Position numbers and translations under genes: made by a program | The notes under the pieces: model-generated | What the model was told of the DNA's origin: nothing | Database searches by the model: none | The model's input: the letters and a program-made list of their open reading frames with translations, nothing else | From: Escherichia coli | Lineage (GTDB): Bacteria; Pseudomonadota; Gammaproteobacteria; Enterobacterales; Enterobacteriaceae | DNA length: 64,000 bases | Strand: one strand, 5' to 3' | NCBI RefSeq assembly: GCF_009931435.1 | Contig: NZ_CP043414.1 | Part shown: positions 37,210-57,436 of the stretch, piece by piece | Numbering within the stretch: position 1 is the stretch's first letter | Layout: each line of letters starts with the position of its first letter

Positions 37210-38502
37210 ATGCGCTATAATGGTTTAAATAATATGTTTTTCCCTCTTTGCCTGATTAACGATAACCACCCTGTCACAAGTCCATCACATACAAAGAAAA
37301 CAGAATCAGATAATTATAGCAAACATCATAAAGACACGTTAATTGACAATAAAGCCCTCTCTCTTTTCAAAATGGATGATCATGAAAAAGTGATAGGCTT
37401 GATTCAGAAAATGAAAAGAACTTATGATACTTTACCATCAGGAAAAATCACTAAAGAAACGGACAGGAAAATTCATAAATATTTTATAGATATAGCTTTA
37501 TACGCAAGTAATAAATATGACGATAGAATTACGAGAAGAGTTTACCTTAATAAAGATAAGGAAGTGTCAATTAAGGTAGTGTATTTTATAAATAATGTCA
37601 CTGTCCATAATAATACTATCGAAATCCCACAGACAGTAAATGGTGGTTACGATTTTTCACACCTTAGCCTGAAAGGTATCAGGATTAAAGATGAAGATTT
37701 ATCCAATTCGGATTTTGCAGGTTGCAGACTACAAAATGCTATTTTCCAGGGCTGTAATATGTATCAAACGAATTTTAATTTTGCCATAATGGAAAAAATA
37801 ATTTTTGATAATTGTATTCTCGATGACTCAAATTTCGCTCAGATAAAAATGACTGACGGAACTCTAAATGCATGCTCCGCTATGCATGTTGAATTCTTCA
37901 ATGCAACAATGATTAGAGCTAAAATTAAAAATACCTTCCTTGACTATTCAAATTTTTATATGGCGTACATGGCTGAGGTGAATCTTTATAAAGTAATAGC
38001 GCCATATGTTAATTTATTTAGAGCCGACCTTAGTTTCTCTAAACTCGATTTAATTAACTTTGAACATGCTAATCTTTCTCGCGTCAACCTGAACAAAGCA
38101 ACCCTCCAGAATATAAACTTAATTAATAGCAAACTCTTTTTTACGCGGCTGACAAATACGTTCCTCGAAATGGTTATATGTACCGATTCTAATATGGCTA
38201 ATGCTAATTTTAATAATGCCAATTTAAGCAATTGCCATTTCAACTGTTCTATTTTAACAAAAGCCTGGATGTTTAATACCCGTTTCTATCGGGTTAATTT
38301 CGATGAGGCTATCGTCCAGGGAATGGGCATATCCATTCTCCGTGGGGAGGATAATATTCCCATTAATAGTGATATCCTGATAACACTACAGCAACTCTTT
38401 GAAGAGGATTGTGCCACTCATACTGGCATGTCACAAACTGAGCATAATATTCAGGAAGTGTCTATGAATACCACTGAAGATACTATGCAATACGCAGATT
38501 GA
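37210..38502 (+). CDS. yjcF: Pentapeptide-repeat protein YjcF, 430 aa, markedly AT-rich gene
   Basis: ORF track; translation rich in N/I/K/F with tandem pentapeptide-like repeats (ANLSRVNLNKATLQNINLINSKLFF, ANANFNNANLSNCHFN). Confidence 0.8.
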   Translation: MRYNGLNNMFFPLCLINDNHPVTSPSHTKKTESDNYSKHHKDTLIDNKALSLFKMDDHEKVIGLIQKMKRTYDTLPSGKITKETDRKIHKYFIDIALYASNKYDDRITRRVYLNKDKEVSIKVVYFINNVTVHNNTIEIPQTVNGGYDFSHLSLKGIRIKDEDLSNSDFAGCRLQNAIFQGCNMYQTNFNFAIMEKIIFDNCILDDSNFAQIKMTDGTLNACSAMHVEFFNATMIRAKIKNTFLDYSNFYMAYMAEVNLYKVIAPYVNLFRADLSFSKLDLINFEHANLSRVNLNKATLQNINLINSKLFFTRLTNTFLEMVICTDSNMANANFNNANLSNCHFNCSILTKAWMFNTRFYRVNFDEAIVQGMGISILRGEDNIPINSDILITLQQLFEEDCATHTGMSQTEHNIQEVSMNTTEDTMQYAD

Positions 38503-48885: not shown

Positions 48886-49914
48886 ATGAGCCTGGAAAGC
48901 GAAGAAAAAGACCAAACAGAAAAAAAGCTGATCACCATGCGTGACGTGGCGAATGCTGCCGGGGTGAGTATTTCTACCGTTTCGCGTATCCTGGATGAAA
49001 GATTACCGCCATCTAAAAGCGCTTCTGCCGAAAAAGTACGCCAGGTCGCACGCGAATTGGGCTATCGTCGGGATTATGTTGCCTCCAGTCTCCGTCGCGG
49101 CGGCACCGGGACACTTGGTGTATTAGTTCCACGCCTGACTGATGCAGTTACTGCAATGTTGTTTGAAGAAATCGCTAAAGCAGCGTCGCATCGTGGTTAC
49201 TTCGCAGTGGTCGCGACTTGTGGAGACGATCCCCAGCAAGAGCGAGAATCTGTAGAATCACTTCTCGACAGGCGGGTCGACGGCTTGATTATGTCAACCT
49301 GTCGCCTCGGCGATCCCCTACCGCAAACTTTGCGTGAAAGGGATATTCCCCATGTGCTCGCCCTGCGTACTGATGGTGTTAGCCCATCATCCATCGGCGA
49401 TGATGAACTGGGTGGTTACCTTGCTACTCGCCATCTTATTGATTTAGGACATAAAAACATCGGTTTGATAGGTGGCCCGGATTTTGCCTCAAATGCGCTT
49501 AATCGCCGTAAAGGTTTTGAAAAGGCAATGCGCGAAGCCGGACTAACTATACAGCCGCAATGGTGCTGTTCATCAGACTTTAACATCCAGTCGGGAGAAG
49601 AAGCAGGGATGAAACTCCTCAGAACGACTCCTGCTCCAACCGCTATTTTTGCGGTAAATGACGAAATAGCGATTGGTGTGGTTGCTGCCGCTCACCATTT
49701 GGGGATAACAATCGGCCAAGAGTTGTCGTTAGTGGGTTATAACGACATTCCTCTGGTCAGCCGACTTCCTGTGGCGCTCACTTCCGTAAGAACGCCGCTA
49801 GAGCATATCGCCAGTAATGCTGTGGACATGTTGATTAATGCCGACAGTGGCCGCTCTTTGCGTACAACCATACCGACTTTAATACCAAGAAAATCAACGA
49901 GTTCACCCAAGTAA
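48886..49914 (+). CDS. LacI-family transcriptional regulator (accessory locus gene 3), 342 aa
   Basis: ORF track; N-terminal HTH ITMRDVANAAGVSISTVSRIL; periplasmic-binding-protein-like effector domain; GGGAG ribosome-binding site 6 nt upstream. Confidence 0.85.
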   Translation: MSLESEEKDQTEKKLITMRDVANAAGVSISTVSRILDERLPPSKSASAEKVRQVARELGYRRDYVASSLRRGGTGTLGVLVPRLTDAVTAMLFEEIAKAASHRGYFAVVATCGDDPQQERESVESLLDRRVDGLIMSTCRLGDPLPQTLRERDIPHVLALRTDGVSPSSIGDDELGGYLATRHLIDLGHKNIGLIGGPDFASNALNRRKGFEKAMREAGLTIQPQWCCSSDFNIQSGEEAGMKLLRTTPAPTAIFAVNDEIAIGVVAAAHHLGITIGQELSLVGYNDIPLVSRLPVALTSVRTPLEHIASNAVDMLINADSGRSLRTTIPTLIPRKSTSSPK

Positions 49915-49923
49915 AGCCTGTCT

Positions 49924-49962
49924 TTCATTTGCTGCAAAACCCGGGGTTTTGCAGCAAATGAA
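49924..49962. terminator. Near-perfect 19-bp palindrome 10 bp downstream of the LacI-family gene stop (terminator-like hairpin, no clear T-tract)
   Basis: TTCATTTGCTGCAAAACCC-g-GGGTTTTGCAGCAAATGAA. Confidence 0.45.
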
Positions 49963-50067
49963 GAACATTAAAATTCTTATATTCCTTCCCTGATTTTGTG
50001 ATCCCTGCTGCATTTTTCAACAACTGTTGATTGACAACCTCATTCATCAGGTTCAAATTCAATCTTG

Positions 50068-50093
50068 TGAAAACGATTGCAAGAACGTTTTCA
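50068..50093. promoter_or_regulatory. Second copy of candidate operator TGAAAACG-N10-CGTTTTCA, 58 bp upstream of the DapA-family gene
   Basis: Exact 8-bp inverted repeats with a 10-bp spacer, identical in arms and spacing to 48567-48592. Confidence 0.5.
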
Positions 50094-50150
50094 TTTCGTT
50101 TCTTGCATTGTCCACATAATAAAAAAGACTAAATTATTAAGGAGATAGTC

Positions 50151-51080
50151 ATGATCAATATAGATCTCAGAGGTTTGACCCCGGCACCGGTTACCCCTTT
50201 CAATCGTGATGGTAGTATTGATTTTGATGCTATCCAGCGTCTGGGAAGCTGGCTGGGTAGTATTGACGGCGTTAAAGGGTTAGTTGTACTTGGTCATGCT
50301 GGTGAAGGTACTTTCCTGACACAAGATGAACAGGCCGCTGTGATCCGTGCTTTCGTAAAATCCGTAGATGGCAAGCTGCCTATCATTGCCGGTATCACCG
50401 GTGAAGGGACTGACGTCGCTGCTAAAGAAGCCAAACGTGCCGTGGAAGCTGGTGCTTCAGCAGGCCTGTTATATCCTTCTCATGGATGGTTGCGTTTCGG
50501 CTACCAGGACGGCGCACCACAAGATCGCTACCGCGTTGTCTATGAAGAAAGCGGCCTGCCCTTGATCCTGTTTCAGTATCCTGATGTGACTAAAGCAACC
50601 TATAATCTGCAAACACTGCTGGATATTTCCGCACAACCCGGTGTTTTTGCTATGAAAAATGGTGTACGCAATATGCGTCGTTGGGATACAGAGATCCCGG
50701 TTATCCGCCGCGAGCGTCCGGAATTACAGATCCTCAGTTGCCATGATGAATATCTGGTACACACTGCTTTTGACGTAGATGGTTTCCTTGTCGGCTATGG
50801 CAATATTGCGCCAGAACCGCTCATCGAGATGATCAAAGCAGGTAAAGCTGGCGATTATAAAAAAGCACGCGCGATACATGACCGTCTGCTGCCAGTAACG
50901 AAGTGCGTATATCATCGCGGTTCCCATATGGAAGGAACCGTCGCCCTGAAACACGCGCTGGTTGCTCGCGGTATTCTCGAACATGCTACTGTTCGTTCAC
51001 CGCTATTACCGCTGGAGCATGGTGCCGAAGAAGAAATTCATGCTGCTATGCGTGCAGCTGACCTGCCGCGCGTTAAATAA
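50151..51080 (+). CDS. DapA/NAL-family class I aldolase or dehydratase (dihydrodipicolinate synthase-like) (accessory locus gene 4), 309 aa
   Basis: ORF track; strong AAGGAG ribosome-binding site; family-typical Tyr (LFQYPDVT) and Schiff-base Lys context (FAMKNG). Confidence 0.75.
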   Translation: MINIDLRGLTPAPVTPFNRDGSIDFDAIQRLGSWLGSIDGVKGLVVLGHAGEGTFLTQDEQAAVIRAFVKSVDGKLPIIAGITGEGTDVAAKEAKRAVEAGASAGLLYPSHGWLRFGYQDGAPQDRYRVVYEESGLPLILFQYPDVTKATYNLQTLLDISAQPGVFAMKNGVRNMRRWDTEIPVIRRERPELQILSCHDEYLVHTAFDVDGFLVGYGNIAPEPLIEMIKAGKAGDYKKARAIHDRLLPVTKCVYHRGSHMEGTVALKHALVARGILEHATVRSPLLPLEHGAEEEIHAAMRAADLPRVK

Positions 51081-51351
51081 CTCCGGCAACAGAAAAGAAA
51101 GCAGTATTCTAAATCACTACTCCTGATGGTTATTGCTTTCTTTCACTTAATGCCACATTAACGACGACAGCCACCTTTACATACAATCATAAGGTGGCTC
51201 ATTCTCTTCATCAGCCTATTGTCGCGCCGGGCTATTTTGAATAACTCAGATGTAATAATGATGAGATTGTTAGAATCCAGGCCATAGTACAACGTCTCAG
51301 AAGCCAGAAGGTAAGTAATGCCCTGATCATGGCATGAATTGAAGGAACATC

Positions 51352-52233
51352 ATGAAACTGCTCAGTTTTTCTGTAGATAACGAAGAAAAGTATGGTGCCA
51401 TCGTATCCGATGGAATTATTGACTTGCATAAATTATTTCCCGAACTTCCCGACCTGAAATCATACGTTGCCAGTCAACATTCATTAGACATCGCTTTGTT
51501 TGCAGGTAAAAAAGCCGATTACCATCAGGGCGAAGTGACTTTTCTGCCCGTAATTACTCGACCAAATAAAATCATCTGCGCAGGTATGAACTACCGGGAA
51601 AAATGTGCAGAATTTAATGAAAAAGGTGGCGATCCGACGCTATTTATCCGTTTTGCTGATACTCAGACGGGCCACCGTTGTGGGTTAATAAAACCGACCC
51701 TGAGTAATGAATTTGATTATGAAGGCGAACTGGCGGTAATTATAGGTCGCCAGGGTTCTCACATTCCTGCTGATGAAGCATTTAACTATATTGCCGGGTA
51801 TAGCTGTTATATGGATGGTTCCGTTCGTGACTGGCAGCACAGCTGGTTTACTGCCGGTAAAAATTGGCCTGCAACAGGTGGATTCGGGCCATGGATGGTT
51901 ACGCCAGATGAAATTCCTGACCCTCAAAATCTGAATATTATCACCCGTCTTAACGGCAAGGAAGTGCAGAATGATAATACACATAGCATGCTGCACTCTA
52001 TTAAGGATTTGATTGCCTATATCAGTACTTTCACCACCTTATCGCCCGGTGACGTGATATTAACAGGCTCTCCGGGTGGGGTCGGTAAAAAACGCTCTCC
52101 ACCGCTCTTCTTGTGGCCTGGTGATATTGTTGAAGTTGAGATTTCAAGAATTGGTTGCCTGATAAATCACATTATAAGCGACAACGAAGAGTATCCGGTC
52201 ACTTTACAATCAGAACTCGATAACGCCTGCTGA
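51352..52233 (+). CDS. Fumarylacetoacetate hydrolase (FAH)-family enzyme (hydratase/hydrolase/decarboxylase type) (accessory locus gene 5), 293 aa
   Basis: ORF track; FAH-fold motifs DYEGELAVIIG and ITRLNGKEVQ...GDVILTGSPGG. Confidence 0.75.
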   Translation: MKLLSFSVDNEEKYGAIVSDGIIDLHKLFPELPDLKSYVASQHSLDIALFAGKKADYHQGEVTFLPVITRPNKIICAGMNYREKCAEFNEKGGDPTLFIRFADTQTGHRCGLIKPTLSNEFDYEGELAVIIGRQGSHIPADEAFNYIAGYSCYMDGSVRDWQHSWFTAGKNWPATGGFGPWMVTPDEIPDPQNLNIITRLNGKEVQNDNTHSMLHSIKDLIAYISTFTTLSPGDVILTGSPGGVGKKRSPPLFLWPGDIVEVEISRIGCLINHIISDNEEYPVTLQSELDNAC

Positions 52234-52323
52234 TTATAAAGTTAACGAAAAATTCGGATAGATAGCCTGGCACTTTAGAAATTAACATTAAGTGGTAGGC
52301 AATCCTTTCAAGGAGTATGCGTG

Positions 52324-53610
52324 ATGATCATGCTGCAATTTATTATCGTTTTATTTTTCCTGTTTTTAGGAATGCGTATTGGCGGCATTGGTGTCGGATT
52401 TGCTGGTGGGGCAGGTGTCATCGCCTTGTGCGCCCTTGGTGCAACACCCGGCGATTTACCGATGCTGGTGATCGTTTTTATTATGGTTGTCATCATTGCA
52501 ATTGCTGCAATGCAAGAAGCGGGTGGGATTGACTATCTGGTTGGTTTAACCGAAAAAATGCTTCGCCGCTACCCTCGCCTGCTGGTAATAACTGCACCTC
52601 TGTCTACATGGCTATTAACCATGATGGCCAGTACCGGTCAGGTGTCATTTGCCTGTATGCCGGTTATTGTGGGTGTCGCGAAGGAAAATCAACTTCGTCC
52701 CACCCGGGCGTTGGCGCTTTCGGTTACCGCTTCATTGTTAGGTATTGTTGCCTCGCCTATCTCTGCCGCCGTTATTTTCTTTTCAGGCATCCTGGAAAAA
52801 AATCACCAGGGATGGGGATATTTGCAACTCATTGCCGTTTCTATACCGGCTACTTTATTAGCGTTGATTTGTACTTCGCTTTTTTACCTGTTCTGGGACA
52901 AACTTCGCCAGAATGATCAATTACCCGTACATATGGCTGTAACGAAAAAATCTCTGTCTGCGCCTGTGGTACAGGGAGCTCGTCGCTCAGTACTAATATT
53001 TATTTTTGGCCTAGTTGTAGTACTTTTTTACGCCCTCATTGCCAGTCCGAAAACAGGCGTTATCATACATCCCGTTTTAAATAGTGGACAGGTCCGTATT
53101 TCAGTAATGATGGCTGTAGCACTCGCCATTGTTATGTTTTGCCGGGTAAATGTGAATAACATTCCTGCGACATCAGTTTTTAAAACAGGGATGACGTCAT
53201 GCATCTGTATTTTAGGTGTCGCCTGGCTCGGTTCTACATTCATGGATAGTAACCAGGTGTGGTTTCAAAGCATGATTTCCGGATATTTATTAGATTCACC
53301 ATTGTTGCTGGCAATTATTATTATGCTGGCGTCATGTTTTCTATATTCTCAGGCGGCCTCCACCAAAATACTTTTTCCTATTGCATTAAGTATGGGTATC
53401 GCCCCTGCCACTCTGGTCGCCTGCTTTCCAGCAACGGCTTCTCTTTTTATTTTACCTAACTACCCCACATTATTAGCCGCCGTGACTCTTGATGATACGG
53501 GGTCAACGAAATTAGGAAATCGAATAATCGATCATCCGTTTATTGTTCCTGGTTTAATGGCAACCGTGTTATCGATACTCTTCGCCGCGGGATTCGCATT
53601 GTTTATTTAA
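52324..53610 (+). CDS. DcuA/DcuB-family anaerobic C4-dicarboxylate transporter paralog (accessory locus gene 6), about 428 aa
   Basis: ORF track 52321..53610 (GTG); ATG at 52324; blocks resembling DcuA throughout (GGIGVGFAGG, ASPISAAVIF, KTGMTSCICILGVAWLG, LLYSQAASTK, FILPNYPTLLAAVTLDDTGSTKLGNRIIDHPFIVPG). Confidence 0.8.
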   Translation: MIMLQFIIVLFFLFLGMRIGGIGVGFAGGAGVIALCALGATPGDLPMLVIVFIMVVIIAIAAMQEAGGIDYLVGLTEKMLRRYPRLLVITAPLSTWLLTMMASTGQVSFACMPVIVGVAKENQLRPTRALALSVTASLLGIVASPISAAVIFFSGILEKNHQGWGYLQLIAVSIPATLLALICTSLFYLFWDKLRQNDQLPVHMAVTKKSLSAPVVQGARRSVLIFIFGLVVVLFYALIASPKTGVIIHPVLNSGQVRISVMMAVALAIVMFCRVNVNNIPATSVFKTGMTSCICILGVAWLGSTFMDSNQVWFQSMISGYLLDSPLLLAIIIMLASCFLYSQAASTKILFPIALSMGIAPATLVACFPATASLFILPNYPTLLAAVTLDDTGSTKLGNRIIDHPFIVPGLMATVLSILFAAGFALFI

Positions 53611-53691
53611 AATGTATATGGCAGGAGTCAATATCATCAGACTCATAGTTCACATAAAACAAACTGCAGCATCATCAACATCACTCAGGTA

Positions 53692-53736
53692 TTAAAAATC
53701 CCCAACCAGCCTGTTGGGGATAAATATGTATTTTTC
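53692..53736. terminator. Bidirectional terminator between the convergent Dcu-like gene and ssb
   Basis: TCCCCAAC-cagcct-GTTGGGGA hairpin flanked by A-run (upstream) and T-run (downstream). Confidence 0.65.
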
Positions 53737-53822
53737 AATGTCCCGAGTAGCTACCGGGCAGATATCAATCTGAGGCTGTGGCTAACGCACACTGGCGGTA
53801 ACCACCTGAACCAAAAGAAATC

Positions 53823-54359
53823 TTAGAACGGAATGTCGTCATCAAAATCCATCGGCGGCTCATTAGACGGTGCTGCCGGAGCAGACTGCTGCGGGCGAGA
53901 CTGCGCGCCGCCGCTGAACTGATTGCCGCCCTGCGGCTGCTGAGGCTGACCCCAACCGCCCTGCGGCTGACCACCACCGATATTGCCACCTGCAGGAGCG
54001 CCACCACCCTGACGACCACCCAGCATCTGCATGGTGCCGCCAACGTTTACCACAACTTCAGTGGTGTAGCGATCTTGACCGGATTGATCGGTCCATTTGC
54101 GGGTACGCAGCTGACCTTCGATATAAACCTGAGAACCTTTACGCAGATATTCGCTGGCCACTTCTGCCAGTTTGCCGAACAGCACAACGCGGTGCCATTC
54201 AGTCTGCTCTTTCATCTCGCCGGTCGCTTTATCACGCCAGGATTCGGAAGTAGCCAGCGTAATGTTGGCAACTGCGCCACCATTTGGCATGTAGCGTACT
54301 TCCGGGTCCTGACCCAGATTACCAACGAGAATAACCTTGTTTACGCCTCTGCTGGCCAT
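53823..54359 (-). CDS. ssb: Single-stranded DNA-binding protein, 178 aa
   Basis: ORF track; OB-fold N-terminus; Gly/Gln-rich linker; acidic tail DFDDDIPF. Confidence 0.95.
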
Positions 54360-54510
54360 GTTCGTGTCTCCTGAAAAAAAATCGTTCTGAATAAGTGTAA
54401 ACGCGCGATTGTACCATTACCAATAGCGCTTTTACTATGTTGTGACCTCGGTTCAGGGAAACAAACCTGGCCAGACATTGTTACACAACACTCCGGGTAA
54501 TGCATTCCAA

Positions 54511-54530
54511 TACTGTATATTCATTCAGGT
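54511..54530. promoter_or_regulatory. LexA (SOS) box shared by divergent ssb and uvrA promoters
   Basis: TACTGTATATTCATTCAGGT fits CTGT-N8-ACAG-like SOS box in the ssb-uvrA spacer. Confidence 0.8.
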
Positions 54531-54613
54531 CAATTTGTGTCATAATTAACCGTTTGTGATCGCCGGTAGCACCATGCCACCGGGCAAAAAAGCGTTTAAT
54601 CCGGGAAAGGTGA

Positions 54614-57436
54614 ATGGATAAGATCGAAGTTCGGGGCGCCCGCACCCATAATCTCAAAAACATCAACCTCGTTATCCCCCGCGACAAGCTCATTGTCGTG
54701 ACCGGGCTTTCGGGTTCTGGCAAATCCTCGCTCGCTTTCGACACCTTATATGCCGAAGGGCAGCGCCGTTACGTTGAATCCCTTTCCGCCTACGCGCGGC
54801 AGTTTCTGTCACTGATGGAAAAGCCGGACGTCGATCATATTGAAGGGCTTTCTCCTGCCATCTCGATTGAGCAGAAATCGACGTCTCATAACCCGCGTTC
54901 TACGGTGGGGACAATCACCGAAATCCACGACTATTTGCGTTTGTTGTTCGCCCGCGTCGGTGAGCCGCGCTGCCCGGACCACGATGTACCGCTGGCGGCG
55001 CAAACCGTCAGCCAGATGGTGGATAACGTGCTGTCGCAGCCGGAAGGCAAGCGTCTGATGCTGCTCGCGCCAATCATTAAAGAGCGCAAAGGCGAACACA
55101 CCAAAACGCTGGAGAACCTGGCAAGCCAGGGTTACATCCGTGCTCGTATTGATGGCGAAGTCTGCGATCTTTCCGATCCGCCGAAACTGGAACTGCAAAA
55201 GAAACATACCATTGAAGTGGTGGTTGATCGCTTCAAGGTGCGTGACGATCTCACCCAACGTCTGGCAGAGTCGTTTGAAACCGCGCTGGAGCTTTCCGGT
55301 GGTACCGCGGTAGTTGCCGATATGGACGATCCAAAAGCGGAAGAGCTGCTATTTTCCGCCAACTTCGCCTGCCCAATTTGCGGCTACAGTATGCGTGAAC
55401 TGGAACCACGCCTGTTTTCGTTTAACAACCCGGCGGGTGCCTGCCCGACCTGTGACGGCCTTGGCGTACAGCAATATTTCGATCCTGATCGCGTGATCCA
55501 AAACCCGGAACTGTCGCTGGCTGGCGGTGCGATCCGAGGCTGGGATCGCCGCAACTTCTATTATTTCCAGATGCTGAAATCGCTGGCAGATCACTATAAG
55601 TTCGACGTCGAAGCGCCGTGGGGCAGCCTTAGCGCGAACGTGCATAAAGTGGTGCTGTACGGTTCAGGCAAAGAAAACATTGAATTCAAATACATGAACG
55701 ATCGCGGCGATACCTCCATTCGTCGTCATCCGTTTGAAGGCGTGCTGCACAATATGGAGCGCCGTTATAAAGAGACGGAATCCAGTGCGGTACGCGAAGA
55801 ATTAGCCAAGTTTATCAGCAATCGCCCGTGCGCCAGCTGCGAAGGAACGCGTCTGCGTCGGGAAGCGCGCCATGTGTATGTCGAGAATACGCCGCTGCCT
55901 GCTATCTCCGACATGAGCATCGGTCATGCGATGGAATTCTTCAACAATCTCAAACTCGCAGGTCAACGAGCGAAGATTGCGGAAAAAATTCTTAAGGAGA
56001 TTGGCGATCGCCTGAAATTCCTCGTTAACGTCGGCCTGAATTACCTGACACTTTCCCGCTCGGCAGAAACGCTTTCTGGCGGTGAAGCCCAGCGTATCCG
56101 TCTGGCGAGCCAGATTGGTGCGGGCCTGGTTGGCGTGATGTACGTGCTGGATGAGCCGTCTATCGGCCTGCACCAGCGCGATAACGAGCGCCTGCTGGGT
56201 ACGCTTATCCATCTGCGCGATCTCGGTAATACCGTGATTGTGGTGGAGCACGACGAAGACGCGATTCGCGCCGCTGACCATGTGATCGACATTGGCCCGG
56301 GCGCAGGTGTACACGGCGGTGAAGTAGTCGCGGAAGGTCCCCTGGAAGCGATTATGGCGGTGCCTGAGTCGTTAACCGGGCAGTACATGAGCGGCAAACG
56401 CAAGATTGAAGTGCCGAAGAAACGCGTTCCGGCGAATCCGGAAAAAGTGCTGAAGCTGACAGGCGCACGTGGTAATAACCTGAAAGACGTGACGCTGACG
56501 CTGCCAGTCGGTCTGTTTACCTGCATCACAGGGGTTTCAGGTTCCGGTAAATCGACGCTGATTAACGACACACTGTTCCCGATTGCCCAACGCCAGTTGA
56601 ATGGTGCGACCATCGCCGAACCGGCACCTTATCGCGATATTCAGGGGCTGGAGCATTTCGATAAAGTGATCGATATCGACCAAAGCCCAATTGGTCGTAC
56701 TCCGCGTTCTAACCCGGCGACTTATACTGGCGTGTTTACGCCTGTACGTGAACTGTTTGCGGGCGTACCGGAATCCCGTGCGCGTGGTTATACGCCAGGA
56801 CGTTTCAGCTTTAACGTCCGTGGCGGACGCTGCGAAGCCTGTCAGGGCGACGGCGTGATCAAAGTGGAGATGCACTTCCTGCCGGACATTTACGTACCGT
56901 GCGACCAGTGCAAAGGTAAACGCTATAACCGTGAAACGCTGGAGATTAAGTACAAAGGCAAAACCATCCACGAAGTGCTGGATATGACCATCGAAGAGGC
57001 GCGTGAGTTCTTTGATGCGGTGCCAGCTCTGGCGCGTAAGCTGCAAACGTTGATGGACGTTGGCCTGACGTACATTCGCCTCGGGCAGTCCGCAACCACG
57101 CTTTCTGGTGGTGAAGCCCAGCGCGTGAAGCTGGCGCGTGAGCTGTCAAAACGCGGCACCGGGCAGACACTGTATATTCTCGACGAGCCGACCACCGGTC
57201 TGCACTTCGCCGATATTCAGCAACTGCTCGACGTACTGCATAAACTGCGCGATCAGGGCAATACCATCGTGGTGATTGAGCACAATCTCGACGTGATCAA
57301 AACCGCTGACTGGATTGTCGACCTGGGACCGGAAGGCGGCAGTGGCGGCGGCGAGATCCTCGTCTCCGGTACACCAGAAACCGTCGCGGAGTGCGCAGCA
57401 TCACACACGGCACGCTTCCTTAAGCCGATGCTGTAA
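54614..57436 (+). CDS. uvrA: Excinuclease ABC subunit A, 940 aa
   Basis: ORF track; two ABC ATPase modules ([18 protein letters not shown]) and zinc-finger cysteine pairs. Confidence 0.95.

Follow-up and report, generated by a model that had tools for sequence, protein, structure and literature searches.

A canonical ssb-uvrA control region with one LexA operator beside a catabolic cluster at Escherichia coli integration hotspot #39

The 254 bp that separate the divergent ssb and uvrA genes in the stretch of Escherichia coli DNA analysed here (64,000 nucleotides in all, referred to below as the window) very probably represent the canonical control region of the two genes with its one LexA operator. 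On the other side of ssb, the short spacer towards yjcB has in all likelihood been replaced by a catabolic cluster at integration hotspot #39, and a hairpin linked to this island would terminate ssb ( Table 1 ). Nothing in this arrangement is new in kind. The SOS box is the K-12 operator, which is conserved in essentially every E. coli genome.

Table 1. Coordinates of the features discussed, in positions of the window unless a locus is named.
Feature	Position	Strand	Remarks
yjcB	45258-45539		island-linked distinct allele
Accessory catabolic cluster, 8,283 bp	45540..53822	.	between the yjcB and ssb stop codons
Dcu-family (anaerobic C4-dicarboxylate transporter family) gene	52324..53610	+	convergent with ssb; NCBIfam NF006927, 1.6e-135
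Island-linked spacer, 212 bp	53611..53822	.	whole ssb 3' UTR; no homology to the K-12 yjcB-ssb spacer
Predicted intrinsic terminator hairpin for ssb	53698..53721	-	AUCCCCAAC-AGGCUG-GUUGGGGAU then UUUUAAUA
ssb, 178 aa	53823..54359	-	stop codon TAA; ORF list
CCGTTCT	53825..53831	-	last two ssb codons plus first base of the stop; core common to attL and attR of the GInt-type element
Divergent ssb-uvrA intergenic control region, 254 bp	54360..54613	.	between ssb ATG (54359, -) and uvrA ATG (54614)
Putative distal ssb promoter (P1)	54504..54533	-	-35 TTGACC (54533-54528), 18-nt spacer, -10 TGGAAT (54509-54504); inferred, read from sequence
LexA operator (SOS box) TACTGTATATTCATTCAGGT	54511..54530	.	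20/20 identical to the K-12 uvrA/ssb LexA box
Putative uvrA promoter	54518..54546	+	-35 TATTCA (54518-54523), 17-nt spacer, extended -10 TGT-CATAAT (54538-54546); inferred, read from sequence
uvrA, 940 aa	54614..57436	+	ORF list
GInt-type junction loci	L017 29540-29640 (MS20657); L016 12270-12300; L021 7500-7540		

The genes on both sides of the control region are those of E. coli K-12. The SSB protein is 100% identical to its K-12 counterpart and is matched by the NCBIfam SSB subfamily model at 2e-108, and UvrA shows 99.9% amino acid identity despite only about 96.5% identity of the uvrA nucleotide sequence. The ssb gene ends in TAA, in place of the TGA of K-12. The control region itself is 99% identical to that of K-12, from which it differs by a single nucleotide polymorphism (C>A at 54455) and by the length of one A-run beside the ssb ribosome-binding site (A7>A8, the sole length difference), the box and all DNA up to 50 bp from it being identical. 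An Rfam search of positions 53000-55000 (E <= 1) recovered no family, so that neither the control region nor the ssb 3' UTR has a known sRNA or leader. By these comparisons 54360-54613 reads as the canonical divergent ssb-uvrA promoter region, the biology of which is already known.

The first-pass annotation had placed a LexA-type box between ssb and uvrA, and its coordinates and sequence proved exact, with all 20 positions shared with K-12. The CTG-N10-CAG core of the box (CTGTATATTCATTCAG, 54513-54528) lies in an imperfect palindrome of the 16-20 bp kind. To score the site, an approximate symmetrised position weight matrix (PWM) was prepared from 28 known E. coli sites, the uvrA/ssb box being left out. 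With this matrix the box obtained 20.6 bits and a heterology index (HI) of about 6.7, close to the published HI of 6.98 for the E. coli uvrA/ssb box (PMC9505508). It ranks mid-range among the 28 known sites, and its HI falls within the range of validated sites, well below about 12-13. A score below the LexA threshold, which the first-pass annotation had named as the outcome that would count against its proposal, was thus not obtained.

The box is also the top LexA site of the 64-kb window, the runner-up reaching 12.0 bits, and the best scores in 30 shuffled sequences had a mean of 12.0 +/- 2.7 bits and did not exceed 18.8. No second LexA-like box was detected with the PWM within the 254-bp intergenic region, in agreement with the proposal of a single box shared by the two genes. 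Conservation is nearly complete: the 80-bp core around the box occurs in 5,425 of 5,426 complete E. coli genomes, and in 4,337 of these it is 100% identical. On the basis of palindrome, score and identity to K-12, 54511-54530 is taken to be an E. coli-type LexA operator, at which binding is predicted. The runner-up (AATTGTTGAATTAAACAGTC, 396-415; 12.0 bits, HI about 12.4) scores no better than shuffled sequence and probably reflects chance. Two simpler searches were of little use. A perfect LexA palindrome with up to 3 mismatches returned no match, because the real box differs from the palindrome at 5 positions, and the pattern CTGT-N9-CAG, with 3 matches against 5.5 expected, is no rarer than chance and uninformative alone. 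The lexA gene is located outside the window (in strain SCU-301, about 16 kb beyond the uvrA start).

That the SOS box is shared was described in the first-pass annotation as well known, and it has indeed been published: the ssb promoters have a single SOS box, located between the divergently transcribed ssb and uvrA genes (PMC9505508), and in Salmonella one box is common to the divergent pair, with an HI of 6.99 for both genes (PMC8072944). For ssb, the statement that one site governs both genes goes too far. Read by eye, the box overlaps the putative uvrA -35 hexamer together with part of its spacer and, on the ssb strand, fills the spacer of the putative TTGACC-18-TGGAAT pair; a sigma-70 consensus scan of 53400-54800 at a threshold of 9 of 12 positions called no promoter. 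The putative P1 hexamers are consistent with the report that the distal ssb promoter alone is LexA-repressible (PMC9505508). Bound at 54511-54530, one LexA dimer would occupy both the uvrA -35 hexamer and the entire spacer of the opposite-facing P1, and with its site so placed LexA would be expected to repress both uvrA and P1 in unstressed cells. RecA-stimulated cleavage of LexA would then release the two promoters together, with uvrA rising several-fold and ssb modestly, since most ssb mRNA would derive from the two proximal, LexA-independent promoters.

Published measurements bear on both halves of this model. Induction of uvrA is about 4-fold; ssb has three promoters, of which LexA is able to repress only one, and its basal expression is LexA-independent (PMC9505508). 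The part of the earlier proposal according to which one repressor site governs both genes therefore stands for the shared box, as published, and must be restricted for ssb to one promoter of three. A stronger restriction would have the box act, in effect, as an operator of uvrA only, without meaningful SOS regulation of ssb. A distance of 151 nt separates the box from the ssb start codon downstream of it, the two proximal ssb promoters are LexA-independent, wild-type and lexA3 cells in normal growth express ssb equally, and ssb induction has long been disputed, several older radioimmunoassay, fusion and microarray studies having seen none (PMC9505508). Also, Salmonella cells that are ON for ssb without damage are so independently of LexA (PMC8072944). 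Nevertheless, this reading is considered unlikely: SOS-dependent induction of ssb has been recorded by RT-qPCR after UV or gamma irradiation and a constitutive-SOS mutant overexpresses the gene (PMC9505508), Salmonella ssb was induced 9.6-fold in an SOS screen (PMC8072944), and a promoter-like pair, TTGACC-18-TGGAAT, brackets the box on the ssb strand. Regulation of uvrA and of one ssb promoter from the same operator is the preferred reading.

Beyond the 3' end of ssb the resemblance to K-12 stops. When positions 53300-54700 were compared by megablast with the 5,426 complete E. coli genomes, nearly all matched, and in all but six of them the matches began at query position 519-526, which corresponds to the ssb stop codon (53823-53825), where homology to K-12 ends. 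The convergent yjcB and ssb genes of K-12 are separated by a spacer of 98 bp. This spacer is absent from the window and the 8,283-bp cluster occupies its place, with both edges at stop codons. The first-pass annotation had the accessory locus ending some 200 bp beyond ssb. This holds for its last gene, which ends 212 bp away (53610), but not for the locus as a whole, as non-K-12 DNA extends up to the ssb stop codon itself.

The cluster encodes an OprB-type porin (-), an MFS transporter (-), a LacI regulator (+), a DHDPS-family aldolase/dehydratase (+), a fumarylacetoacetate-hydrolase (FAH)-family enzyme (+) as the fifth of the six genes, and the Dcu-family transporter (+). The two enzymes (DHDPS-family and FAH-family) stayed below the curated cut-off of every family model. 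The cassette looks like an uncharacterised sugar-acid catabolic pathway, and as judged from gene content and boundaries the yjcB-ssb spacer appears to have been replaced by a rare 8.3-kb catabolic cluster of the sugar-acid type. The gene set is conserved in Klebsiella, Raoultella, Pantoea, Citrobacter and other genera as orthologous cassettes with 64-94% amino acid identity, none of which has ssb within 10 kb. The nearest relatives of the Dcu-family protein outside E. coli have at most 83% amino acid identity, leaving a gap between 99% and 83%, and no donor was found.

The distribution of the cluster within E. coli supports its description as accessory. It is present in 12 of 5,426 complete genomes at 99.8-99.9% identity, and the uninterrupted K-12-type junction, that is, the empty site, in 4,956. 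The flanks behave differently. The ssb-uvrA core DNA (53823-57436) has no match above 98.6% in the 5,426 genomes, and this segment is about 96.5-96.7% identical to K-12, UTI89 and the island-bearing SCU-301, the flank of the island-bearing strains being about 96.7% identical to that of the window. Since no genome matches the flank above 98.6%, the lineage of the window appears to be absent from the complete RefSeq genomes; its island nevertheless shares 99.9% identity with the island of the 12 strains. An island so much more uniform than its flanks indicates a probable recent lateral spread. The term foreign used in the first-pass annotation thus seems a fair description of the cluster, because the cassette never adjoins ssb in other genera and the island is uniform across diverged flanks.

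In principle the cluster could instead be ancestral to Escherichia at yjcB-ssb, with the 98-bp spacer of K-12 arising by deletion. Both of its boundaries fall exactly at stop codons, as would those of diverged intergenic DNA between conserved genes. However, retention of an intact K-12-type spacer in 4,956 of 5,426 genomes against 12 with the cluster, an identity of 99.8-99.9% between strains against about 96.7% for the ssb-uvrA flank (and at most 98.6% in any complete genome), and the location of the Klebsiella, Raoultella, Pantoea and Citrobacter orthologues, which never adjoin ssb, make this history highly improbable, and lateral acquisition remains the favoured account.

The interval yjcB-ssb has been catalogued as E. 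coli integration hotspot #39, where the recorded occupants are GInt elements with AVAST and a Detocs/dGTPase island (PMC10121019; PMC11728103). The cluster agrees with an island at this hotspot, being accessory DNA that most genomes lack and that is flanked by the core genes yjcB and ssb. Mobility genes and flanking direct repeats are lacking: there is no integrase, transposase or recombinase gene or pseudogene among its six genes, and no CCGTTCT repeat at the yjcB junction.

Occupants with recombination machinery of their own were recovered from other strains. A GInt-type element of about 12 kb with multiple integrases lies directly after ssb in MS20657, 18AR0845 and 2 HS-C. This three-integrase element inserts at CCGTTCT in the last ssb codons. 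It encodes a tyrosine recombinase (Pfam Phage_integrase) along with a second annotated integrase and two further proteins, one of 675 aa and one small, after which come Avs4 and AbiGi. At the ssb side, attL reads ...CCGTTCTAG-AGTTAAC, and attR keeps CCGTTCTAA plus the island spacer in MS20657 and CCGTTCTGA plus a K-12-type spacer in 18AR0845. Both ends hold CCGTTCT, from which the element appears to recombine within this motif, rebuilding the end of ssb with a stop codon of its own: TGA or TAA is exchanged for TAG, and the element brings its own ssb terminator (CCCCUG-uuaauu-CAGGGG-U6). Most of the interrupted genomes sampled break right after TCAGAACGG. A fourth filler of yjcB-ssb, in strain 23CRST011 (L024 20041-20988), consists of 950 bp of AT-rich DNA with one hypothetical gene of 158 aa; its ends coincide exactly with the stop codons of yjcB and ssb, and ssb ends there in TAA and encodes a different SSB allele (WP_021578210.1). 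All three stop codons (TGA, TAA, TAG) thus occur at the E. coli ssb end, depending on the occupant of the site.

These elements raise the question of whether the catabolic cluster is itself the remnant of an integrative element that entered at CCGTTCT, brought TAA and an ssb terminator with it and later lost its recombinases along with the old spacer. The GInt-type element integrates at exactly that motif, replaces the stop codon (by TAG) and supplies a canonical terminator; the hairpin of the island is likewise oriented for ssb; and the 23CRST011 filler, too, begins at the ssb stop codon (TAA). In ssb itself, linkage to the island is confined to nt 513 and the stop codon. Against such an origin stand the lack of any recombinase gene or pseudogene in the cluster, the missing CCGTTCT repeat at the yjcB end, and the fact that TGA>TAA is a single transition. 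The yjcB gene provides a further argument. Its island-linked allele shows 0 mismatches among most of the island strains and about 12% nucleotide divergence from K-12, UTI89 and CT282, and MS20657 is recombinant within the gene. This suggests that the island travels with yjcB by homologous recombination, and import from a diverged relative fits such an allele better than integration does. Descent from a decayed element is accordingly regarded as doubtful, and the cluster may have arrived by homologous recombination together with the diverged yjcB.

Some further variation was observed in the neighbourhood. Between the convergent yjcB and porin genes (45548-45581) there is a hairpin with a 14-bp stem (-21.2 kcal/mol) and no U-tract on either strand, standing where K-12 has the canonical yjcB terminator (GAAGCCTCC...T6). 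The genes actP and yjcE enclose a gene for a 430-aa pentapeptide-repeat protein (yjcF/espX5, 37210-38502), which K-12-like strains have and the island-bearing SCU-301 lacks, and which so constitutes another presence/absence polymorphism. Also near uvrA, the interval tyrB-aphA varies, with only 337 bp in the window and, in MS20657 (L017 10465-23858), a cluster of about 13 kb with a second set of 2-oxoglutarate dehydrogenase and succinyl-CoA ligase, a DASS symporter and a sigma-54 two-component pair.

Since replacement begins at the ssb stop codon, the ssb mRNA would end in island-linked sequence. The 212-bp spacer that makes up its 3' UTR was found solely in the 12 island-bearing genomes, in one copy each and at 100% identity, and no homologue was found outside them; ten other species and the two closest metagenomic relatives likewise lack it behind their Dcu-family orthologue. 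The weak MAFFT matches that the spacers of K-12 and the window gave (about 53% identity over 38 nt) were considered as a trace of old homology and discarded, being indistinguishable from an alignment artefact. The spacer has one hairpin of note, with a 9-bp stem (5 GC pairs) and a 6-nt loop, starting 101 nt after the ssb stop codon. Its folding energy is -14.6 kcal/mol on the minus and -14.5 kcal/mol on the plus strand (z about -3.5 to -3.6), and as the 12 spacer copies are identical, covariation lends it no support. On the ssb strand the stem is followed by UUUUAAUA (U5), and on the island strand by AAAUAUGUA (given also as AAATATGTATTTTTC), with just 3 U in the first 9 nt. A terminator scan requiring at least 5 T in 8 bases called the hairpin on the minus strand only, and this was the sole terminator-like site between the Dcu-family gene and ssb. 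For ssb, then, the elements of a Rho-independent terminator are in place downstream of the stop codon, namely a GC-rich stem-loop and a U-tract; a U-tract on both strands, as in a bidirectional terminator, is not seen. The hairpin would accordingly serve as the intrinsic terminator of ssb.

The first-pass annotation had gone further and held that ssb 3' processing and termination now share this hairpin with a foreign operon, which would make 53698-53721 a true bidirectional terminator ending both the ssb and the DHDPS-FAH-Dcu transcripts. The hairpin does exist and ssb does end in accessory DNA. Moreover, it is the only strong hairpin of the 212-bp spacer, its folding energy is practically the same on both strands, and convergent bacterial genes often share one hairpin, K-12 ssb and yjcB included. 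A fully bidirectional role is possible, but less probable than one polarised towards ssb, given the 3 U in the first 9 nt of the plus-strand tail and the lack of a plus-strand call by the scan. A C-rich, G-poor stretch just after the Dcu-family stop (53631-53708; C 22, G 6) looks more like a Rho entry site, a function that it could serve, speculatively. Transcripts of the Dcu-family gene would probably be ended weakly at the hairpin, or by Rho.

The comparison of the ssb 3' UTR and terminator with strains lacking the locus, which the first-pass annotation had proposed, revealed in K-12 an unrelated spacer of mirrored T-tract polarity: there is a single GC-rich hairpin with a T6 tract on the yjcB side and no terminator called in the ssb direction. 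The island-linked hairpin would therefore appear a better canonical terminator for ssb than that of K-12, and a poor one for the last gene of the island. Nor is such sharing a novelty for ssb. As K-12 ssb already converges on yjcB across one hairpin, the sharing of a convergent hairpin seems to be ancestral for ssb and to predate the island.

With a spacer that is a good terminator only for ssb, the DHDPS-FAH-Dcu genes could, when induced, send antisense read-through across ssb towards the SOS promoter region, coupling a nutrient signal to the expression of ssb and uvrA in the rare island-bearing strains. A related idea is that CCGTTCT serves generally as an attachment site and that each occupant rewrites the ssb stop codon and terminator. 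Such extensions are put forward as distinctly unlikely conjecture. What can be said is that ssb, an essential and highly expressed gene, borders a recombination hotspot, has at least four different sequences downstream of it in E. coli, and receives its stop codon, 3' UTR and terminator from whichever sequence occupies the site. If the identity of the 3' UTR does affect ssb mRNA stability or antisense exposure, SSB dosage could differ between strains.

Among known systems, the uvrA/ssb LexA box of K-12 (Brandsma et al. 1983, 1985; Fernandez de Henestrosa et al. 2000, cited in PMC9505508) has the identical 20-bp operator at the same position between the divergent genes, with spacing equal within one base and identical flanking promoter sequence; the two regions differ at the polymorphism at 54455 and by one extra A, and by nothing in or around the box. 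The ssb-uvrA region of Salmonella enterica (PMC8072944), another genus, compared here through its published description, also has a single box for the divergent genes, and its ssb has high LexA-independent basal expression. At the other end of ssb, the convergent yjcB/ssb terminator hairpin of K-12 (GAAGCCUCC-auaac-GGAGGCUUC) is likewise a single GC-rich hairpin that separates ssb from a gene converging on it, but it is unrelated in sequence to that of the window and its T-tract faces yjcB, whereas that of the window faces ssb.

Salmonella pathogenicity island SPI-4 is reported to lie between ssb and soxSR; a paper search for SPI-4 with ssb and soxSR gave no match. Like the present cluster, SPI-4 would be a large accessory island that follows directly on ssb, in this case in a related genus, and it differs from the cluster in cargo (an adhesin and a type I secretion system) as well as in size and genus. 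Within E. coli, the published hotspot #39 (PMC10121019; PMC11728103) has the same flanking core genes, is empty in most genomes (4,956 of 5,426 here) and contains varied accessory DNA in the rest. Its published occupants are defence islands with recombinases, in contrast to the catabolic cargo of the window, which has no mobility gene and has replaced the whole spacer at both stop codons.
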